From Mucisphaera calidilacus (GTDB taxonomy: Bacteria > Planctomycetota > Phycisphaerae > Phycisphaerales > Phycisphaeraceae), in NCBI RefSeq assembly GCF_007748075.1, contig NZ_CP036280.1:1200001-1232000 (forward strand): a stretch of 32,000 nt of DNA. Reading direction: 5' to 3'. Below the pieces are notes generated by a model. That model searched no databases and was not told the origin of the DNA. It saw only the letters and a program-made list of their open reading frames with translations. Shown here one piece after another: positions 2,886 to 19,088 of this stretch (its first letter is position 1; each line of letters opens with the position of its first letter). Both the position numbers and the translations under genes were made by a program.

Positions 2886-4037
2886 ATGGGAAAGCGAATG
2901 CTTGTCGGAACGTTCTGTGTTGTCTTCATGATGCTGGTGGCGGGCTGTGTCGAGGGGGAGTCGGGTCCGCAGTCCATGTCTGAGAGGAATGAGGCTATGG
3001 CTTCAACGGTGATGGTGCGTGTGTTCAACAAGGATGGTGAGTTGGTGGGTCCGGTGTCTTCGGACCGGGTTGTGAAGTCGGATGAGCAGTGGGCGTCAGA
3101 GTTGCCGAGGCAGGTGTATGAGGTGACGCGTCGGGACGGTACCGAGCGGGCGGGGACGGGCGAGCTTCTGAACAACAAGGCGGAGGGCGTGTACAGCTGT
3201 GCCTGCTGCGGGCTGCCCCTGTTCCGGTCGGAGGCGAAGTATGAGAGCGGGACGGGCTGGCCGAGTTTCTACGAGCCGATTGCGGCGGAGAACGTTGTTG
3301 ACAAGAAGGACACGTCGCACGGGATGGTGCGGGTGGAGAACGAGTGTGCGCGCTGCGGGGCGCATCTGGGGCACGTGTTCCCGGACGGTCCGCGGCCCAC
3401 GGGGCTGCGTTACTGCATGAACTCGGTGTCGCTGGTGTTCACGCCTGCGGATGAGCTTGGGTCGCTGGCCGATCCTGCGGCGGAGGCACCGTTGCTGAGA
3501 TCGGCGGTGTTCGCGGGTGGCTGCTTCTGGTGCACGGAGGCGGTGTACGAGCAGCTGGAGGGCGTGCACGAGGTGGTGTCGGGGTATGCGGGCGGTGAGG
3601 CTCGGACGGCGAACTACGCGCAGGTGTCGGCGGGGCGTACCGATCACGCGGAGGTGATCCGGATTACGTATGACCCGGCGGTGATTGATTACGCGATGCT
3701 GCTGGAGGTGTTCTTCACGGTGGCGCACGACCCGACGCAGCTGAATCGTCAGGGTCCGGACGTGGGGCGTCAGTATCGTTCGGCGGTTTTCTACCAGTCG
3801 GAGGAGGAGCGGGCGCGGGTTGAGGCGTACATCGAGGAGCTAGAAGCGTCGGGGCGTTTTGGTGATCCGATCGTGACGACGCTGGAGCCGCTGGAGCAGT
3901 TTTATGCGGCGGAGGCGTATCACCAGGATTTCGTAGAGCAGAACCCGATGCAGCCTTACGTTCGTCAGCAGGCGTTGCCGAAGGTGGACAAGGTTCGTCG
4001 GAAGTATGAGTCGCGTCTGAAGGGCGTGGGTCAGTAG
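2886..4037 (+). CDS. msrAB: Bifunctional peptide-methionine sulfoxide reductase, MsrB-MsrA fusion, predicted lipoprotein
   Basis: Has a lipobox (MMLVAGC). The MsrB part has two CxxC pairs (CACCG, CARCG) and the GLRYCMNS catalytic motif. The MsrA part has [13 protein letters not shown] and HAEV motifs. Confidence 0.92.
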
Positions 4038-5092: not shown

Positions 5093-6714
5093 GCCTTGGG
5101 CTCCTCATCGGACGAGACGCGTGGGAGGTTGGCGTTGGCGAGACCGGGTTTGGTCTGGTGTCCCTTGAAGACGTCGAAGAGTCCGCCGGTGGATTCGCCG
5201 AAGCCCTCGTCGGGTGGTTCGGGTCCGGCCTGGATCTTTCGGTTGAGGACGTAGAGCCAGATGGCGCCGAGGAGGAGGTAGATGACGAGGAACATGATGA
5301 TGGAGAAGAGGACCTGTTCGGCGGCGACGACCTTGCTGACGCCGTCGTCGGTCCGGAGTCCGGCGATGCGTGAGCCGTCGTCGGTGCGTTCGTAGCGGAT
5401 GTAGCCGTCGGGGTCGCGGAGGGGTGTTCCCTGTGCGTCGCGTTCGATGGTGGGGTGTACGATCCAGGGTTGTCGCCCGACCTCGGCGGCGATCCAGCCG
5501 GCCTGGTTGGCGACGACGGCGGGGAGGACGGAGATGACGAAGAGCCACATGAGCCATCGGCTCTCGTAGAGGTTGCCGCGGTAGAGCCGCCAGCAGCTGT
5601 AGAGTCCGAGGATGACGAAGAAGACGCCTGCGCCGAGCATCATGCGGTAGGTGAAGAAGGGGATGATGACGGGAGGGCGGTGTTCGGGTCGGAATTCGTT
5701 GAGGCCGAGGACGGGTTCGTTGAAGTCTTCGTGGACGAGGAAGCTGAGGAGCCCGGGGATCTCGATGTTCCAGGCCCAGTTCTGGTTTTCGACGTCGGGC
5801 CATCCGATGATCTGGAGTTCGGCGTTGGTTTCGGTTTCGAAGAGTCCCTCGAAGGCGGCGAGCTTGGCGGGCTGGTAGTGGTAGACGTTCTGGGCCTGGA
5901 AGTGTCCTGAGATGGCGATGGCGACGGAGCTTACGGTGGCGAGGATGAGGGCGCCGGCGAAGCTGCGTCGTGCGAAGTCGACGTGCTTGTTTTTGAGGAT
6001 GTACCAGGCGCAGATGCTGAGGATGAAGAAGGCGCCCATGATGAAGCAGCCGAGGAGGACGTGGGTGAGTCGGTGTGCGGTGGAGGGGTTGAGGACCATG
6101 GCCCAGAAGTCGGTGACCTCGGCGCGCATGACGGGCGTGCCGTCGATGACCCAGGGTTCGGTGATGATGCTGCCGGCGTCGTCGCGCATGACGTGGCCGT
6201 TTTCGTCGAGGACGTTGCGCATCATGGGGACGACGTGGCTGCCGGCGGGCGTCTGCTGCCAGGAGTTGGCGACGACGATCCAGATGCTGGAGAAGATGGA
6301 TCCGAGGGCGACCATGAGGGTGCTGAAGAAGTGCATCTTCGGGCCGACGCGGTTCCATCCGAAGACGAGGACGGCGAGGAATCCGGATTCGAGGAAGAAG
6401 GCGAAGATGCCCTCGGCGGCGAGCGCGGAGCCGAAGACGTCGCCGACGAAACGGGAGTAGGCGGCCCAGTTGGTGCCGAACTGGAACTCCATGACGATGC
6501 CTGAGGCGACGCCGATGGCGAAGTTGAGGGCGAAGACGCGCGTCCAGAACTTCTGCGCCTGTCGGTAGGCGGGGTCCTTGGTTCGGAGATACATCCCGCC
6601 GAGGTAGACCAGCACCACGCCCATGCCGATGGTGAGCGGCGGGAAGAGGTAGTGGAACATGATGGTGAGGGCGAACTGGATGCGTGAGAGCAGGACGACG
6701 TCGAGAAAATCCAT
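5089..6714 (-). CDS. cydA: Cytochrome bd ubiquinol oxidase subunit I
   Basis: Contains [32 protein letters not shown], a Q-loop region and the hallmark [11 protein letters not shown] motif. There is a roughly 50-aa hydrophilic C-terminal tail. Confidence 0.95.
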
Positions 6715-6734
6715 GGTGATTCTCCGGGGTCGCG

Positions 6735-6756
6735 TGGCGCGGTCGTGGTAGCGCCA
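6735..6756. promoter_or_regulatory. 6-bp inverted repeat TGGCGC-N10-GCGCCA in the divergent cydA / SOUL-like intergenic region
   Basis: Read directly from the sequence at 6735-6740 and 6751-6756. Short, so it could be chance. Confidence 0.2.
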
Positions 6757-6863
6757 TCACCGACAGCCGCTATCAGGGTAATCGGATCGTGTCATCGTGC
6801 AAGGCGATCGTCTGGTCGCGAGGCGGCGACGGGCCTATGAATTGCTGTTGCTTAAGGAGACTG

Positions 6864-7655
6864 ATGATGACCGTGTTGCGATGGTTCTGTGGTGTGGCGA
6901 TGTGCCTGATGATGTTGGTGTTCCCGGGCTGCGTGCGTGCGGAGATCGGTCCGGCGTCGGGTGCGGAGGCCGTGGTGGTGGAGCCGGTGACGGCGATGGA
7001 GGCGGGCGCGACGTCGCCCGGTGATTGGTCGGTGCTGCGTGTGGGCGGCGAGCCGGAGCACGAGCTGACGGTGATGCGGGGGACGACGAAGGGTGGTTCG
7101 TCGGCGGATTACTTTGAGAGCGGTCGTGCGCGGATTTCTGCGGCGCTGCCTGAGGGTTATGCGCGGCCGACGGTGCCGGGTGCGGTGGAGTTGAAGCGTT
7201 ACGCGTCGTATCGGCAGGCGTTGCTGACGTCGGAGGGGCGTGGGCAGTCGGGGATGTTCTGGCCGCTGTTCCGGCACATCAGCAGTCGTGATATCGCGAT
7301 GACGGCGCCGGTGGTGATGACGGGTCGGATGGCGGGTGACGAGGCGTCGGAGACGTCGATGGCGTTTTTGTATCGCGAGCCTGAGTTGGGGCCGACGGGT
7401 GCGATGGAGGATGGCGTGGTGGTGGAGGATGTTGCGCCGACGTACGTGCTGTCGGTTGGCGTGATGGGCGGGCGGGACGACGAGCGTTTCGATGCGTTGC
7501 GTGGTCAGCTGGAGGCGTGGCTTGCAGCGCAGGGCGAGGGAGGCCGCTGGGTGGTGGACGGTGAGGTGCGATTGCTGGGTTACAACGGTCCGGACGTCGC
7601 GCGGCGTTACAAGTGGTGGGAGCTTCAGCTACCGGTTCGCTGGGAGGCTGAGTGA
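6864..7655 (+). CDS. SOUL/HEBP-family haem-binding-like protein, secreted
   Basis: MFWPLFRHISSRDIAMTAPVVMT matches the SOUL-family (F/L)FxYIxG...IxMTAPV signature. Has an N-terminal signal-like segment (VLRWFCGVAMCLMMLVFPGCVRA). I chose the start at ATG 6864 because AAGGAG lies at 6854-6859; the track ORF starts at GTG 6789. Confidence 0.72.
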   Translation: MMTVLRWFCGVAMCLMMLVFPGCVRAEIGPASGAEAVVVEPVTAMEAGATSPGDWSVLRVGGEPEHELTVMRGTTKGGSSADYFESGRARISAALPEGYARPTVPGAVELKRYASYRQALLTSEGRGQSGMFWPLFRHISSRDIAMTAPVVMTGRMAGDEASETSMAFLYREPELGPTGAMEDGVVVEDVAPTYVLSVGVMGGRDDERFDALRGQLEAWLAAQGEGGRWVVDGEVRLLGYNGPDVARRYKWWELQLPVRWEAE

Positions 7656-13248: not shown

Positions 13249-13322
13249 TGGGCGAAGCAGGACTCGAACCCGCGACATCTTCCTTGTAAGGGAAGCGCTC
13301 TAGCCAACTGAGCTATTCGCCC
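13249..13322 (-). tRNA. tRNA-Val (anticodon TAC)
   Basis: The minus-strand sequence GGGCGAATAGCTCAGTTGGCTAGAGCGCTTCCCTTACAAGGAAGATGTCGCGGGTTCGAGTCCTGCTTCGCCCA folds by hand into a cloverleaf. It has a 7-bp acceptor stem, GCTC/GAGC D stem, CTTCC/GGAAG anticodon stem with loop CTTACAA, and a GTTCGAGTC T-loop. CCA is not encoded. Confidence 0.93.
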
Positions 13323-13393: not shown

Positions 13394-13822
13394 ATGAAGA
13401 CGGCAACGATCGAGACGAACAAGGGCATCATCACGCTGGAGTTGTACGACGACAAGACGCCTAAGACGGTGGCGAACTTCGAGAAGCTGGCTGGCGAGGC
13501 TTACTACGACGGCCTGAAGTTTCACCGTGTGATCGAGGATTTCATGATCCAGGGCGGCTGCCCGAAGGGCGACGGCACGGGCGGGCCGGGGTACACGTTC
13601 GAGGACGAGTTCCACCCCGACCTCAAGCACGACGGTCCGGGCGTGCTGTCGATGGCGAACGCGGGGCCGAACACCAACGGCTCGCAGTTTTTCATTACGC
13701 ACGTCGAGACGTCGTGGCTGGACGGCAAGCACTCGGTGTTCGGGCGTGTGACCGAGGGGCAGGACGTGGTCAACGCGATCCAGCAGGGCGATGAGATCAA
13801 GAAGGTGACGGTGAGCTCTTAA
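13394..13822 (+). CDS. ppiB: Cyclophilin-type peptidyl-prolyl cis-trans isomerase (cytoplasmic)
   Basis: Contains [31 protein letters not shown] and HSVFGRV motifs. No signal peptide. Confidence 0.95.
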
Positions 13823-13823
13823 A

Positions 13824-14615
13824 CTATGATGTACTTGGCCTACTCTTCTCCAAAGCCGTTAATACGGCGAACAAGTCCTTAATGCAATTAAGAGCCATAT
13901 CTTTATCTATGCTAGATAGCTGTTTTCCATGAAGAATATTATTGCCGATTTCTCTAATTCGTGTTGCTGCATCAAAATCTTTCTTTGGCAATCGCTTCGT
14001 GAGTCTCGCCGCCTTGATGCGATCCGCCAAGTCAACAAATCGCTTGCCTTCTCGCCATTTCTTGAAGTTGCGTAGCGTAATCTCGCATGCATCGGAGGGT
14101 ATTTCAGCCTGCATCTCTACATCAAGAACAGACCTACACATCGCTATACATTCAGGGTAAAGTGACCAGAGATAGCATCTCGTAACCCGGTTTATGTAAC
14201 GCTTGGATTTGCGTGAATAGCTGGTGTCGTTGGCCAAATTTAGTAACGTAAAAATCTCATTCTCTGCCTCCTCGAATGTCTCAAGAAATTGCATGCCCAG
14301 CGATTGCAGTATCGCGCTTCTTGCATAAAGCATGTCGTCAACGCCAGAATCACCAGAAATCATGATTGAAGTTAAAATCTCTTTAAATGACCCTGTCTTC
14401 GGCGTTTCTAGCGTATGGCTACTTCTGAATAAATCAGCAATCCACTCTTCGATCTTCTGGATATTTATTTTGGCAGCCTCATAGTCAATTTTGCAAGTAC
14501 TTGCATAACGATCAATTTTATCACTCCTGTACTGGTCAAGAGCCATATCGAATGCATGGCTCACAGGTGTAAAATCATGGCCACCAAATGGATAATCTGT
14601 GTAGTCATCATTCAT
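13824..14615 (-). CDS. Orphan low-GC protein with DUF4145-like (HEPN-related) C-terminal domain; N-terminal ~140 aa unknown
   Basis: 263-aa ORF in the only AT-rich segment of the window. Its ATG overlaps the folA stop (ATGAATGA). The C-terminal pattern is CIAMCRSVLDVEM...ADRIKAARLTKRLP...ATRIREIGNNILHG...ALNCIKDLFAVLTAL. The domain call is from memory of the family signature, not from a search. Confidence 0.65.
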   Translation of the reverse strand: MNDDYTDYPFGGHDFTPVSHAFDMALDQYRSDKIDRYASTCKIDYEAAKINIQKIEEWIADLFRSSHTLETPKTGSFKEILTSIMISGDSGVDDMLYARSAILQSLGMQFLETFEEAENEIFTLLNLANDTSYSRKSKRYINRVTRCYLWSLYPECIAMCRSVLDVEMQAEIPSDACEITLRNFKKWREGKRFVDLADRIKAARLTKRLPKKDFDAATRIREIGNNILHGKQLSSIDKDMALNCIKDLFAVLTALEKSRPSTS

Positions 14616-15105
14616 GGCTCATGCGACTCCTTCTCGTGACAGTAAAACCTATCTCATGCCGCTCATCCACCGGATGCTCCATCAGCACCTCATGGTTCCA
14701 CCCGCTGAAATCAAACGCCGACAGCACCACATCTCCCTCCACCTCCGCGTGGACCACCGTCTCGTAGACCCGATCGGCCATCGGGAACGCCTCGGCGAAC
14801 AGCCCCGCGCCGCCGATGATGAAGACTTCCTCGTCGGTGTCGCGGTAGGGGGCGAGGGCGTCGTCGAGGGTTCGGCGGGCGGTGATGCCGGGGAAGGGGA
14901 AGTCGGGATTTCGGGTGAGGACGATGTTGGTTCGGCCGGGGAGGACGGCGTTGTGGTCTTCGAAGGTTCTGCGTCCCATGATGATGGGGTGGCCGAGGGT
15001 GGTGCGTTTAAAGTGTCTGAAGTCTTCGGGGAGGCGCCAGGGGAGCTTGCCGTCGCGTCCGATGACGTGGTTTTCGGATCGGGCGTAGATGAGGGAGAGG
15101 ATCAT
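14608..15105 (-). CDS. folA: Dihydrofolate reductase
   Basis: MILSLIYARSENHVIGRDGKLPWRLPEDFRHFKRTTLGHPIIMGRRTFE...IIGGAGLF...VHAEVEGD aligns by eye along the full length of E. coli FolA. The 3' third has a different codon style (see findings). Confidence 0.93.
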   Translation of the reverse strand: MILSLIYARSENHVIGRDGKLPWRLPEDFRHFKRTTLGHPIIMGRRTFEDHNAVLPGRTNIVLTRNPDFPFPGITARRTLDDALAPYRDTDEEVFIIGGAGLFAEAFPMADRVYETVVHAEVEGDVVLSAFDFSGWNHEVLMEHPVDERHEIGFTVTRRSRMSHE

Positions 15106-15114
15106 GTGGCGGTT

Positions 15115-15909
15115 TCAGACGGCGACGGGTGCCTTGATGTGGGGGTGGGGGTTGTAGTCGAGGAGGGTGAAGTGCTCGAAGCGGAAGGCTTCGAGGGATC
15201 GGATGTTGGGGTCGAGTGACATGCGTGGGAGGGGGCGGGGTTCGCGGGTGAGTTGCTCGCGGGCCTGGTCGAGGTGGTTGAGGTAGAGGTGGGCGTCGCC
15301 GAGGGTGTGGATGAAATCGCCGGGCTGGAGGTCGGTGACCTGGGCGATCATGAGGGTGAGCAGTGCGTAGCTGGCGATGTTGAAGGGGACGCCGAGGAAG
15401 ATGTCGGCGGATCGCTGATAGAGCTGGCAGCTGAGTTTGTTGTCGGCGACGTAGAACTGGAACAGTGCGTGGCAGGGTGGGAGTGCCATCTGGTCGATCT
15501 GGCCGGGGTTCCAGGCGCAGACGATGTGTCTGCGGGAGTCGGGTGCTTTGCGGAGCTGGGTGACGACGTCGCCGAGTTGATCGACGGTGGTTCCGTCGGG
15601 TTTGGGGAAGGATCGCCACTGCCTGCCGTAGACGGGGCCGAGGTCGCCTTGGTCGTCGGCCCACTCGTCCCAGATGGAGACGCCGTTGTCCTTGAGGTAG
15701 CCGATGTTGGTGTCGCCGGCGATGAACCAGAGCAGCTCGTGGATGATGGAGCGGAGGTGGAGTTTCTTGGTGGTGACGAGGGGGAAGCCTTCGGCGAGGT
15801 CGAAGCGCATCTGGTGGCCGAAGACCGAGCGTGTTCCGGTTCCGGTGCGGTCGGTCTTGACGGTGCCCTCGTCGAGGACGTGTTGCATGAGGTCGAGGTA
15901 CTGGCGCAT
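15115..15909 (-). CDS. thyA: Thymidylate synthase (ThyA type)
   Basis: [38 protein letters not shown] aligns from residue 1 of E. coli ThyA and gives 264 aa. Also has the PPCH active-site region ([13 protein letters not shown]). The track ORF extends to 16068, but that 53-aa extension has no ThyA counterpart. Confidence 0.95.
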
Positions 15910-15972
15910 AGAGTTATTTATCATGGATACAAGCGATGCAGCCATTCGCTCTGGATAACGCTCTGCAGAACA

Positions 15973-15990
15973 TGTTGTCGGGTGACAACA
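15973..15990. promoter_or_regulatory. Perfect 7-bp inverted repeat TGTTGTC-GGGT-GACAACA in the thyA / nuoA divergent region
   Basis: Read directly from the sequence. It lies in a roughly 190-bp lower-GC spacer between thyA (start 15909) and the likely nuoA start. It could be an operator or a chance palindrome. Confidence 0.2.
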
Positions 15991-16097
15991 GCGACCTGAA
16001 TGATCGTTGGTCATGTGGATTGGGTGTGGGAATGCTGTCGCCAACTGGCGCAATGATGTCGGCAGCATTCGAGTTGGATCTCGGTATACTCTTGGCC

Positions 16098-16505
16098 ATG
16101 TTGATGACGCTTGCCCAGGCTGCTGCCACGGATTTCAACCACTACGCCGCGCTCGGCGTGCTGCTGCTGATCGCGATCGGTTTCGGGATCGCGGCGGTGT
16201 TCGCGACGGTGATCATCGGCCCGAACCGCGATGGCGCTGTGAAGGGTGCGGTGTACGAGTCGGGCATGAACCCGTGGGGCACGGCTCGGCGGCGATTCAA
16301 CGTTCGCTTCTATATGGTGGCGATGACGTTCCTGCTTTTTGATGTCGAGATCGCGTTTCTCTACCCGTGGGCGGTGACGTACCCGAGCCTGGACCCGGAG
16401 AGCGGTCTGGGCGGCGTGTTTCTCGGGCGTCTGCTGTTCTTCCTGCTGACGTCGGTGATCGCGTTTGCGTACGCGTGGCGCAAGGGCGTCTTCAAGTACG
16501 ACTAG
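16098..16505 (+). CDS. nuoA: NADH-quinone oxidoreductase subunit A
   Basis: Contains [41 protein letters not shown], the NuoA/ND3 signature. The start is uncertain. The track ORF starts at 15936, and in-frame ATGs occur at 16032, 16053, 16098 and 16104. I prefer 16098 or 16104 because upstream codons have poor third-position GC and the resulting length (about 133-135 aa) is typical. Confidence 0.8.
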
Positions 16506-16507
16506 TT

Positions 16508-18217
16508 TTACCTGGATGCCGGTCCGAGCAGTTGATCGACCCTGCGGAAGGTGTAGCCGCGGCGGCGGAGTTCGTCGATGAGTGTGCCGAGGTGGCGGTA
16601 CATCTTGTCCTCGCGCTGGCCGCCGAGGTGGAGCAGGAGCAGGTGGCCGTTGAGTCCTGTGGGTGATTCGGCCTCGTGGGTCAGGATGTCGTCGAGCATC
16701 TGGTCGGAGCTTCGGAATCTGGGGTGGGATTCGGGCATCCAGTCGCGGTGGGATCCGGTGCCGATGGTGAAGTTGAAGAGGCGGAGGCCCATGTCGTCGG
16801 CCCAGTCGGCGTGCTGCTGGTTGTACCACTCGTAGGGCGGGATGAAGAAGATGGGTTGGCCGGCTGCGCCGCCGAAGGCCTGGAGGTCTTCGATGTTGCG
16901 GTTGAGGTCGTGGGTGAACTGCTCGCGGGTGACGAGGGAGGTTGAGCGGTCATCCCAGGGAGCGTAGAGCAGGTGTGCGTGGGAGTGGGGGCCGAGGTAG
17001 TGTCCTTCGTCGACCATGCGTCGGAGGAAGGGGTGGTGTTCGGTGATGGCGGTGTAGTCGCCTGTGACGAAGAAGCCCGCGGGGACGTTGCGATTTTTGA
17101 GGGTGTCGAGGATGTGCTGTGAGCCGTCGCCATGCTCGCCGGCGGTGAAGATCAGGGCGAGCGCGGGCTGTGTGGGGTCGCCTCGGACGATGCCTCCCTG
17201 GACGATCTCGAATCGGCTGGCGTCGGGCGGGGTTTCGAGGGCGACCTCGGCGATCAGTTGTCGGATGGCCGTCTGGGTTTCGGGTTCGTCGGCGTAGTAG
17301 CGGACGTCGCGCGGCTGGATGGTGAAGTTGCCGGGGTGTTCGGTGAGGGTGTAGTGGGTGCCTTCGAGCGTGCGTGTGTCGAGGGTGTCGTCCTGATCGA
17401 TGACGCGGAGGCGTTTCTGGTCGCGCCAGGTGCGCAGGGCCTGCTTGGCGCCTTCGGTGTCGCCGGTGGTGTAGAGCCAGTAGAGCAGTCCGGTGTCGGT
17501 GTAGGGGGTGCCCATGAGGATCTGCTTGGCGTAGAAGCCGGTGTCGGCTTTCATTTCGGGCGTGAGGTCCTGCCAGGTCCCGCCGGGCGGCGGCTTGGCG
17601 AGGACGGATCGTGTCCAGTCGTGGCTCTGGCCGATCTCGCCGGTGACGTAGGGTTCGAGCCAGAAGTAGCGTTGGATGGCGTAGGGCGAGCGTTGCCCGA
17701 GTTGTTCGTAGGAACGCTGGATGTAGTCGATGATCATCATGGCCTGGACGTCGGGGTGGTCGCGGCAGAAGTCGTTGACCTGTGCGGGTGTCCAGTCGGG
17801 CTGGATGCCGTAGGGCGGCCCGTAGGTTTCGCGGATGTTGCGGACGGTGATCTGCCATGGGCCGATGGTGGTCTGGCCGATCATGTCGGCGGTTTCTTCG
17901 GCGGTGGTGCGTCCCCATCGTTTGTCGGGGTCGTTGAAGAGGATGAAGCCTTCCTGGAGGGCGTGGGCCCAGAGGTCCTCGAGGCCGACGAGGTTGCCTT
18001 CGCCGGCGGCGTGTTTTTGTAGGAGGGCCTCGTAGGCGACTCTGAGGATGACTTGTCCGCCGGGGCCGTAGCGTGTGTCGCCGATGTTGTTGCTGATGCG
18101 TTGGTAGCGGGTGTCGAGGTCGGGCGGGGTGGTGGTCATGTGGGTGGTCGTTGTGGCCGAGCAGCCAGTGAAGAAGAGGATGAGGAGGAGGATGAGTCGT
18201 GGTGATGCGTGTGTCAT
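16508..18217 (-). CDS. Lipoprotein with uncharacterised N-terminal domain and C-terminal CE4-type polysaccharide deacetylase domain
   Basis: Start placed at ATG 18217 (MTHASPRLILLLILFFTGCSATT, signal plus lipobox-like FTGC). The C-terminal region IFTAGEHGDG...VPAGFFVTGDY...GHYLGPHSHAHLLY...FFIPPYEWYN resembles the NodB-homology deacetylase subfamily with an HSxxH motif. The track ORF (to 18808) adds a P/S/T-rich extension that overlaps the next gene out of frame. Confidence 0.8.
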   Translation of the reverse strand: MTHASPRLILLLILFFTGCSATTTTHMTTTPPDLDTRYQRISNNIGDTRYGPGGQVILRVAYEALLQKHAAGEGNLVGLEDLWAHALQEGFILFNDPDKRWGRTTAEETADMIGQTTIGPWQITVRNIRETYGPPYGIQPDWTPAQVNDFCRDHPDVQAMMIIDYIQRSYEQLGQRSPYAIQRYFWLEPYVTGEIGQSHDWTRSVLAKPPPGGTWQDLTPEMKADTGFYAKQILMGTPYTDTGLLYWLYTTGDTEGAKQALRTWRDQKRLRVIDQDDTLDTRTLEGTHYTLTEHPGNFTIQPRDVRYYADEPETQTAIRQLIAEVALETPPDASRFEIVQGGIVRGDPTQPALALIFTAGEHGDGSQHILDTLKNRNVPAGFFVTGDYTAITEHHPFLRRMVDEGHYLGPHSHAHLLYAPWDDRSTSLVTREQFTHDLNRNIEDLQAFGGAAGQPIFFIPPYEWYNQQHADWADDMGLRLFNFTIGTGSHRDWMPESHPRFRSSDQMLDDILTHEAESPTGLNGHLLLLHLGGQREDKMYRHLGTLIDELRRRGYTFRRVDQLLGPASR

Positions 18218-18244
18218 GGCGGACAGGTTAGCGGAGGTGTGCGG

Positions 18245-18286
18245 AAAAAACGTCAAGCCCCGGCTGCCGAGGCAACCGAGGCTTGA
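18245..18286 (-). terminator. Putative rho-independent terminator after the PEP-CTERM protein gene
   Basis: On the minus strand: TCAAGCC(TCGG)...(CCGG)GGCTTGA stem followed by CGTTTTTT. It lies between the stop at 18318 and the next start at 18217. Confidence 0.45.
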
Positions 18287-18317
18287 GTTGGGTGGGGGGC
18301 GATCTTGTTTGAACGGA

Positions 18318-19088
18318 TCAGGCGTTGCGGCGGAGCGCCGTGATGCCAAGGAGTGTGAGTCCTGCGGCGAAGGCGGCGGGCGTCGGGACGGGGGCTGCGG
18401 TGGTGACGGTGTTGAAGTCGCCGTCGGCGAGTTGAGCGGGTTGGTTGAGGTTGTTGCCGATATTGCCGGCGGTGAAGGTGCTGGCGGTGACGCCGATGAA
18501 TTCATCGGATCGGAAGGCGTTGTTGGGGTTGAGGTAGGTGACGATGAAGTCGAAGGAGTCGCCGAGGCTGAGCCCGATCTGTGTGAGGTCGAAGGCGATG
18601 CCGAAGGAAGGATCGGAGGCGTCGCGTGCTCCGTCGGTGCTGACGCCTGCGACGAAGGCGTGGTTGGCGGGGTCGGCGCCGATCGCGAAGAGACCGGAGA
18701 AGGCTGTTTCGATGGTGATGGCGTAGTCGGCCTCGAAGGTGGCGGCGAAGTTGAGGTGGCTGGTCTCGTCGCCGAAGCCCTGCCCGCTGATCGCGGCACG
18801 TCCGCCATCGGCGGTGTCGGTGAGGCCCGAAGTGGAAGCGACGCCGCCGGCGACGGCGTCGATGTAGATGACGGCGGTGTCGTTGAGGGTGCCGGATCCG
18901 CGGTTGAGCGTCATGGCGACGAGGCCCGCGGGGGAGACGTTGACGTCGAGGGTGGCTTCGGAGCCGATGACGTTGCCGAATCCGCTGCTGACGCCCGCGG
19001 CGGTGCCGGTGGTGTTGATGATGATCGGTTCGGCGCAAGCGGTGGCGGCCAGAGCTGCACAGAGCATGCCGGATGCGATGATTTTCAT
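18318..19088 (-). CDS. Secreted protein of unknown function with PEP-CTERM-like anchor
   Basis: Has a signal peptide (MKIIASGMLCAALAATACA) and a Gly/Ala/Thr-rich body with no recognised domain. The C-terminal VPTPAAFAAGLTLLGITALRRNA is a PEP-CTERM variant (VPTP, TM helix, basic tail). Confidence 0.8.
   Translation of the reverse strand: MKIIASGMLCAALAATACAEPIIINTTGTAAGVSSGFGNVIGSEATLDVNVSPAGLVAMTLNRGSGTLNDTAVIYIDAVAGGVASTSGLTDTADGGRAAISGQGFGDETSHLNFAATFEADYAITIETAFSGLFAIGADPANHAFVAGVSTDGARDASDPSFGIAFDLTQIGLSLGDSFDFIVTYLNPNNAFRSDEFIGVTASTFTAGNIGNNLNQPAQLADGDFNTVTTAAPVPTPAAFAAGLTLLGITALRRNA

Follow-up and report, generated by a model that had tools for sequence, protein, structure and literature searches.

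In the genome of the planctomycete Mucisphaera calidilacus, a small gene of foreign composition separates folA, encoding dihydrofolate reductase (DHFR), from ppiB, encoding a cyclophilin. The DNA analysed here, referred to as the window, is a stretch of 32,000 nucleotides from contig NZ_CP036280.1 (positions 1,200,001 to 1,232,000), and the coordinates given below are positions within it unless a locus is named. The gene in question is an open reading frame (ORF) of 792 nt on the minus strand (13824–14615), which starts with ATG and, according to the ORF call and a Pfam match, encodes a DUF4145/HEPN-family protein of 263 amino acids (aa). The ORF fits tightly between its neighbours. Its start codon lies in an 8-nt overlap, ATGAATGA (14608–14615, minus strand), with the TGA stop codon of folA (14608–15105, minus strand), a gene of host composition. 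The folA tail includes a Shine–Dalgarno (SD)-like hexamer, AAGGAG (14627–14632, minus strand), which precedes the ATG by 11 nt. At the other end, a single base (13823) separates the TAG stop codon (13824–13826) from the TAA (13820–13822) of the convergent ppiB gene (13394–13822, plus strand), which, like folA, was identified by Pfam and by comparison with relatives and is the slot's conserved neighbour on the right. All these dimensions had been reported in a preliminary description of the locus, and each of them is accurate.

The foreign composition is evident from every measure applied. The ORF has a GC content of 42.4% and a GC content at third codon positions (GC3) of 0.436, against 63.4% GC for the whole window and GC3 values of 0.70–0.90 in eight neighbouring genes; relative to all other 792-nt segments, its GC content gives z = −9.7. 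The codon adaptation index (CAI, leave-one-out) is 0.22 versus 0.28–0.87 in the neighbours, and host-rare codons make up 24% of the ORF versus 0.4–5.5% of the neighbouring genes. The coding-strand GC skew is opposite in sign to that of the adjacent minus-strand genes. The G+C counts made by hand for four 60-nt lines in the preliminary description (22/60, 27/60, 39/60, and 38/60) all proved exact. Its statement that the ORF is the only AT-rich stretch needs narrowing, since a second patch below 50% GC exists at ~19.05–19.3 kb (~250 nt); this patch is an ordinary divergent intergenic region, so the ORF is the only AT-rich coding stretch of the window. Along the window as a whole (1–32000), the plus-strand GC skew is strongly positive (about +0.1 to +0.49) with a monotonic cumulative curve, and it is negative only across the insert (13800–14800). 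Host codon usage is strand-dependent, the coding strand being C-rich in minus-strand genes and G-rich in plus-strand genes.

Relatives of the DHFR were retrieved with folA, and their loci were compared for synteny. The closest of them (L018, a Phycisphaeraceae metagenome-assembled genome (MAG) with an 81% identical folA) has the same gene order as the window, nuoA / thyA–folA / ppiB / tRNA-Val, and its slot is empty, the folA TAA and the ppiB stop codon being one base apart. In L019 (Mucisphaera sp., folA 76%), the slot (6490–7324 of that locus) is occupied by a gene on the folA strand encoding a 213-aa Methyltransf_21 (FkbM-type) protein. This gene is AT-rich (44.5% GC in a locus of 61% GC), and its product shows a weak PADLOC match to mad2 (E = 3.6e-10) limited to the S-adenosylmethionine (SAM)-binding region; the methyltransferase gene is a second independent foreign cargo at the folA/ppiB junction. 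In L080 (folA 72%), the slot (3088–3987) contains a gene for a 299-aa protein of host composition, which has a signal peptide and a C-terminal ...TYGF resembling that of outer-membrane proteins (OMP), but no Pfam match, and the gene is provided with its own GC-rich terminator hairpin. Four syntenic genomes thus show four states of the slot (empty, OMP-like, methyltransferase, and DUF4145), and in none of the three relatives does a host-composition orthologue of the ORF occupy it. More distant folA relatives (L020, L081, L083, and L084) are uninformative on the slot because they have no ppiB downstream, and in a metagenome scan with folA no DHFR exceeded 50% identity, gut bacteria being the main source. 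Because the slot is empty in L018 and the junction varies across the four syntenic genomes, the ORF is almost certainly an insertion, horizontally acquired in the M. calidilacus lineage. Horizontal acquisition had been proposed in the preliminary description, and the foreign composition together with the empty site in the closest relative now supports it.

When the filled site is set beside the empty one, the inserted DNA (~800 bp) turns out to coincide almost exactly with the ORF. Next to ppiB, the window and L018 have the one-base spacer in common. On the folA side, the DHFR of the window is 2–3 codons longer at its C-terminus than those of the relatives, and the folA stop codon falls in codons 2–3 of the new gene. 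A repeat search around the insert gave no convincing target-site duplications or flanking inverted or direct repeats, and the neighbouring genes inspected, up to ~5 kb from the ORF, included no integrase or other mobility gene. Two candidate routes of entry were considered and rejected. For an integron cassette, there is only 1 nt between the stop codons of the ORF and ppiB, and the repeat search, which used no dedicated attC model, found no attC-like site. The tRNA-Val(TAC) gene (13249–13322, minus strand), the only feature found in an Rfam scan, is located ~500 bp away beyond the intact ppiB and does not adjoin the insert. No repeat of the tRNA 3′ end was found, and the gene is not an attachment site because it belongs to the shared gene order and occupies the same place in L018, whose slot is empty, and in L019, whose slot is filled differently.

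It was also considered whether the insert had brought a replacement for the 3′ tail of folA. AT-rich third positions (AT3) are found in 7/15 tail codons in the window (P ~ 0.001) and 5/12 in L019, but tails just as AT3-rich occur in the controls L020, which lacks an AT-rich insert (5/12, P = 1e-5), and L080 (8/14), and the nucleotide identity of the folA tail is 0.37–0.47 for all genome pairs. The idea was dropped because the tail is simply fast-evolving. As an observation in its own right, the last 12–15 folA codons (14608–14655 in the window, and likewise in L019, L020, and L080) have low GC3 with any downstream gene, L018 being the exception, and the protein consensus of the tail in this clade is D[DE]RH-[AP][HY]AFT[IV]xR[YW]DR.

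The ORF leaves no space for a promoter or terminator of its own, as had been noted earlier, and consensus scans of the minus strand around it revealed neither a sigma-70-like promoter nor an intrinsic terminator. For this reason, the gene is most likely transcribed by read-through from thyA–folA, and its translation would be coupled to that of folA at the ATGAATGA overlap.

The encoded protein is already present in public databases, where NCBI and UniRef annotate the identical sequence as a "DUF4145 domain-containing protein" of M. calidilacus. The Pfam DUF4145 profile (PF13643) matches it with 29.5 bits, above the gathering score of 23.1 (E = 7.6e-7), residues 148–246 being aligned with profile positions 6–85 of 88; HEPN_Swt1 is a sub-threshold match. 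An AlphaFold2 model of the full protein, built on 16 sequences, is entirely helical (mean predicted local distance difference test (pLDDT) score 78.9, predicted template modelling (pTM) score 0.65). The soluble protein consists of two all-helical domains, a family-specific N-terminal region of ~135 aa and a DUF4145-type HEPN region of ~125 aa. The N-terminal domain (residues 1–134; 14214–14615, minus strand) is predicted to contain helices 16–41, 45–68, 77–85, and 91–128 and is a candidate sensor or oligomerisation module. The C-terminal HEPN-like domain (residues 135–257; 13845–14213, minus strand), delimited by Pfam and the model, is predicted with pLDDT mostly >90 and shows the four-helix up-and-down arrangement of the HEPN fold. 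The top Foldseek matches in the PDB are Csm6, AF_0298, HEPN–MNT toxins, archaeal HEPN homologues, and MtlR, and the match to AF_0298, a HEPN protein, has a probability of 1.00 and a target-normalised TM score of 0.70. DUF4145 has been assigned to the HEPN superfamily (Anantharaman et al. 2013, PMC3710099; PMC13017515), and the protein very probably adopts this fold.

The reading of the protein in the preliminary description is supported in part. Along with the C-terminal DUF4145 domain and its grouping with HEPN proteins, that reading included an R-x2-GN-x3-H motif, which is indeed present and conserved in the family; codons R221 to H229 (R-E-I-G-N-N-I-L-H; 13929–13955, minus strand) spell the R-x7-H motif of catalytic type identified from the alignments and by comparison with R146/H154 of RAZR (see below). 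The N-terminal part, said to carry no recognisable motif in its ~140 aa, has no Pfam match over ~135 aa, and when residues 1–135 were modelled alone (pLDDT 72), no Foldseek match in the PDB was better than E = 2. Residues 1–134 include one cysteine (C41). No transmembrane helix is predicted (the maximum Kyte–Doolittle 19-residue mean is 0.88), no significant match was found in PHROGs, and comparison of the full model with the viral BFVD collection gave nothing meaningful.

The earlier designation of the protein as an orphan is too strong. A word-indexed search returned the ORF protein itself as the sole match. When 1.84 billion cluster representatives were searched exhaustively with phmmer, there were 240 matches at E ≤ 1e-3, 40 of them at E ≤ 1e-10; about 20 clusters (~250 aa) align near full length with 25–34% identity, and identity to any of the clusters is 35% or less. 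The protein thus has no close relative without being an orphan. Across the family, H229 is conserved in 157/158 representatives. In a table of 159 sequences, the other conserved positions are C160 (152), R161 (147), E155 (145), C156 (136), R199 (129), N225 (122), C147 (118), G224 (117), and C177 (104), and the ORF protein retains every one of them along with H229 and R221. Residues E155 to R161 (E-C-I-A-M-C-R; codons 14133–14153, minus strand) form a family-specific conserved motif revealed by the alignments. The four cysteines C147, C156, C160, and C177 (14085–14177) belong to the opening helices of the HEPN-like domain, with C160 directly preceding R161, which hardly varies; a metal or redox site is one possible role for them, plain packing in the core another. 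To our knowledge, no conserved four-cysteine feature of this kind has been described for DUF4145.

The retention of all family-conserved residues makes the protein look intact and constrained, and this bears on whether the insert is an inert passenger, i.e., a trimmed remnant of a mobile element or the product of a random illegitimate insertion, with little or no expression or function, which is tolerated as folA and ppiB are undisrupted. Such an origin would agree with the low CAI and the quarter of codons that are rare in the host, with the failure to find a promoter, mobility genes, target-site duplication, or flanking repeats, with the unrelated cargo that the slot takes in relatives, and with the identity of 35% or less to every relative found. 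Against it, the 263-codon frame has been kept open in AT-rich DNA (a run of this length would be open by chance with a probability of ~2e-8 at such a base composition), and the close overlap of start and stop codons and the SD-like hexamer before it look like an adaptation to expression. Taken with the conserved residues, these features make an inert insert distinctly improbable.

The distribution of the family was followed with a back-translated genome scan that used an 8-sequence alignment, the full 23-sequence alignment being too divergent. Matches came from MAGs of Phycisphaerae, Tepidisphaerales, Planctomycetaceae, Actinomycetes, Anaerolineales, Gemmatimonadales, and Longimicrobiales, and one came from an IMG/VR contig. 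Of the 13 members sampled, 11 have a lower GC content than the surrounding DNA, the gap reaching 13 points, which suggests that this DUF4145 family is a generally mobile gene.

Several members have neighbours typical of defence or mobile elements. One is located directly behind the type I restriction–modification (R-M) genes hsdS–hsdM (L015), another lies ~1.1 kb before brxA–brxB of BREX (L082), and a third adjoins BrnT and DUF4268 genes (L016). In L017 (300–3695), the family member ends 1 nt before a gene encoding an 876-aa ZorD/DpdE-like SNF2 helicase (PADLOC matches to ZorD at E about 1e-121 and to DpdE at about 1e-116). This member is strongly AT-shifted (GC 0.43–0.46 versus 0.55 in the flanks) and together with the helicase may represent a two-gene defence arrangement. 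Members in L008 and L009 belong to an element with integrase, HTH_17, NikA-like, and DUF3854 genes, and the one in L010, itself without a PADLOC match, lies between thrS and a PIN gene. Of the two settings proposed for checking, several homologues show the first, with R-M, BREX, helicase, toxin, or integrative-element neighbours, and none of the sampled ones lies downstream of folA. An all-against-all BLAST of the neighbours in 15 family contexts revealed no partner recurring across lineages, and no partner gene is present beside the ORF, just as had been stated before. As side observations, a gene for a trypsin-like peptidase (Trypsin_2) lies just upstream of the family member in both L012 (106–1719; a Planctomycetaceae MAG) and L014 (45–2610; an Anaerolineales MAG), although the two MAGs are assigned to different phyla, and the two peptidases are 53% identical; this shared block could be either a two-gene mobile module or MAG contamination.

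These contexts also bear on a more specific proposal, according to which the protein acts as an effector in stress or abortive infection, is tied in its function to the thymidylate/folate operon, and responds to the rewiring of dTMP synthesis by phages. It is true that the 8-nt overlap with folA and the lack of an own promoter would make expression dependent on thyA–folA transcription. However, 0/14 other family contexts adjoin thyA or folA, and the slot is empty in the closest relative and filled with unrelated genes in two others, so that the linkage is unique to the M. calidilacus genome. It is on these two grounds that we regard the folA linkage as an accident of the insertion site and functional wiring as highly improbable, contrary to what had been suggested at the outset.

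Free-standing DUF4145 proteins with a role in immunity are already known. RAZR (PD-T7-4), a ring-activated zinc-finger ribonuclease (RNase) that assembles around phage ring proteins, is a single-gene system with a DUF4145 RNase effector (Zhang et al., Nature 2026, PMC13017515). Its residues R146 and H154, spaced as R-x7-H, are required for defence in a catalytic capacity; the protein is non-toxic when overproduced until it is triggered, its N-terminal domain is the sensor, and the RNase is active as dimers or oligomers (PMC13017515). The ORF protein resembles RAZR in being a partnerless single-gene product of similar small size with a C-terminal DUF4145-type HEPN domain preceded by an N-terminal domain, the sensor in RAZR and a candidate sensor here. 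The spacing of R221 and H229 is also equal to that of the catalytic pair of RAZR, and by analogy the ORF protein is expected to be latent until triggered. At the same time, the N-terminal Cys4 zinc ribbon of RAZR is replaced by a four-helix domain of ~135 aa with a single cysteine, and the PADLOC models, PD-T7-4 included, do not match. The ORF protein is not RAZR because the zinc ribbon and the PADLOC match are both missing.

BxaP, a BREX-associated one-gene DUF4145 protein, provides an abortive-infection-type defence (Nat Commun 2024, PMC10799925), and Ishtar1, a stand-alone HEPN (DUF4145/DUF3644) anti-plasmid protein, has been described as a single-gene immune system (bioRxiv 10.64898/2026.07.06.735840). 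The ORF protein shares the one-gene format with both of them, and the family member in L082 is, like BxaP, found near BREX genes, although none are present near the ORF itself. In BxaP, however, DUF4145 is N-terminal and followed by a HEAT-like C-terminal domain, and in Ishtar an N-terminal HEPN domain is followed by a beta-rich one, whereas the ORF protein is all-helical with its HEPN domain at the C-terminus. Because of these differences in domain order and accessory domain, it is neither BxaP nor Ishtar. DUF4145 domains fused to HsdR, nucleases, or helicases (PMC3710099) belong to the same Pfam family and HEPN superfamily, and the R-M association of L015 recalls them, but the ORF protein is small and free-standing, with its own N-terminal domain and no fused endonuclease or helicase module. 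HEPN–MNT toxins have the HEPN fold and are among the best Foldseek matches (7ae6/7ae8/7ae9 and 5yep). Their motif spacing is different, and the ORF protein is not such a toxin because no MNT antitoxin gene is found beside the ORF or in the sampled family contexts.

The reading that we favour, at a probability of roughly 0.55, is that the ORF encodes a horizontally acquired stand-alone sensor plus HEPN RNase, a candidate defence protein that is expressed via thyA–folA read-through. The defence reading is also favoured because part of the family contexts are of defence or mobile-element type. Its components differ in strength. By analogy with the characterised proteins, the ORF product is probably an active RNase, while the chances of a defence role are about even; a toxin or abortive-infection function may be proposed on the same analogy. 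In the mechanism envisaged, transcripts reading through from thyA–folA would be translated by termination–reinitiation at the ATGAATGA overlap, giving a latent RNase. By analogy with RAZR/PD-T7-4, BxaP, and Ishtar1, its HEPN domains would come together as dimers or oligomers and so build a composite active site. The N-terminal domain would hold the RNase off until an invader-derived trigger is sensed, and the ensuing RNA cleavage would arrest the cell or the invader.

A number of observations weigh against this reading. At the level of expression, the sequence is the sole basis for co-transcription and translational coupling, and the AAGGAG hexamer is rather distant from the ATG. At the level of the protein, the canonical HEPN motif R-x4-6-H is replaced by R221-x7-H229, no HEPN structure is matched by Foldseek with an E-value better than 0.04, and the family alignment, used as a profile against PDB sequences, retrieved nothing but designed helical bundles, which are spurious. 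NCBIfam contains no significant match, and no family of PADLOC-DB 2.0 (2023) matches even at E up to 10, so the ORF protein is not a recognised defence system. At the level of the family, tblastn against the INPHARED (phage) and PLSDB (plasmid) collections found no match, position 221 varies (R or K in 131/157), and the defence-type contexts, ~6/14, are a small raw tally with no background comparison. Finally, the members in L001 and L004 have a host-like composition (GC3 0.80) and a housekeeping neighbourhood, and for these members, at least, a cellular role outside defence would be in keeping with that.

The last point leads to the possibility that the protein is HEPN-like with a role outside defence, e.g., a non-catalytic or regulatory RNA/nucleotide binder of the MtlR type or a housekeeping RNA-processing factor that was transferred by chance. 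In L001 and L004–L006, family members are placed among hom, pyrF, and hemE, a position kept between the related genomes of L001 and L004, and they always follow a gene for a conserved ~485-aa protein (L001: 6444–7907; L004: 6395–7852; also L005 and L006; 83% identity between L001 and L004). The latter has no Pfam or PADLOC match; it may be a lineage-specific partner, or the family member there may be a domesticated copy. The occurrence of MtlR among the structural matches, the variation at position 221, and the empty PADLOC result agree with a role of this kind as well. On the other side, H229 hardly varies and R/K221, N225, and R161 vary little, a pattern typical of an active site; most members are compositionally foreign and patchy across phyla; several adjoin R-M, BREX, helicase, or toxin genes; and the characterised stand-alone DUF4145 proteins (RAZR, BxaP, and Ishtar1) all act in defence. 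On balance, a non-defence role is considered unlikely, and the stand-alone sensor plus HEPN RNase continues to be preferred.

The protein is best described as an architectural variant of the single-polypeptide arrangement of a sensor with a DUF4145/HEPN effector and not as a new kind of system. The DUF4145 call was already available in public annotation, single-gene DUF4145 defence is established, and nothing reported here overturns current understanding. If the favoured reading is true, the growing one-gene DUF4145/HEPN immune class (RAZR, BxaP, Ishtar) would gain a further accessory-domain variant, with the N-terminal domain as a new candidate trigger sensor, and would be extended into Planctomycetota, where defence systems are little studied. 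A bolder and rather doubtful proposal combines two elements. The family of ~240 clusters, with its novel four-helix N-terminal domain, extended DUF4145 core, and C147/C156/C160-R161/C177 motif, might represent a form of single-protein RNase immune sensor that has so far escaped recognition and is missing from the defence catalogues, specific for a trigger of its own and perhaps equipped with a metal or redox site; and the folA/ppiB junction might be a miniature Mucisphaera hotspot that captures promoterless AT-rich genes at ORF-exact boundaries. Whatever the function, the locus offers a clean natural example of gene gain, in which one relative shows the site empty, two others show different cargo, and the insertion matches the ORF exactly, and the way in which the insert relies on an essential operon for its transcription and translation signals informs how promoterless foreign genes get expressed.

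Upstream of folA, the annotation of the operon requires correction. The mechanical ORFs of thyA (thymidylate synthase; 317 aa, extending to 16068) and nuoA (189 aa) are too long and run into each other within 15909–16505. The relatives' proteins have 264 aa (thyA) and 127–138 aa (nuoA), and the Pfam matches begin only at residues 55 and 86, respectively. The true starts are likely near 15909 for thyA (15115–15909, minus strand; the start is indicated at M54) and about 16100 for nuoA (plus strand). With these starts, the two genes are separated by a divergent region of ~190 bp, a putative promoter region that would drive thyA–folA together with the insert. Further on, a 256-aa ORF (18318–19088) overlaps in another frame the 5′ part of a 766-aa ORF (16508–18808, minus strand), and the gene model is uncertain there. 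In the 766-aa product, a polysaccharide-deacetylase domain is confined to residues 544–677, and the first ~230 residues form a long low-complexity stretch rich in Pro, Ser, and Thr.

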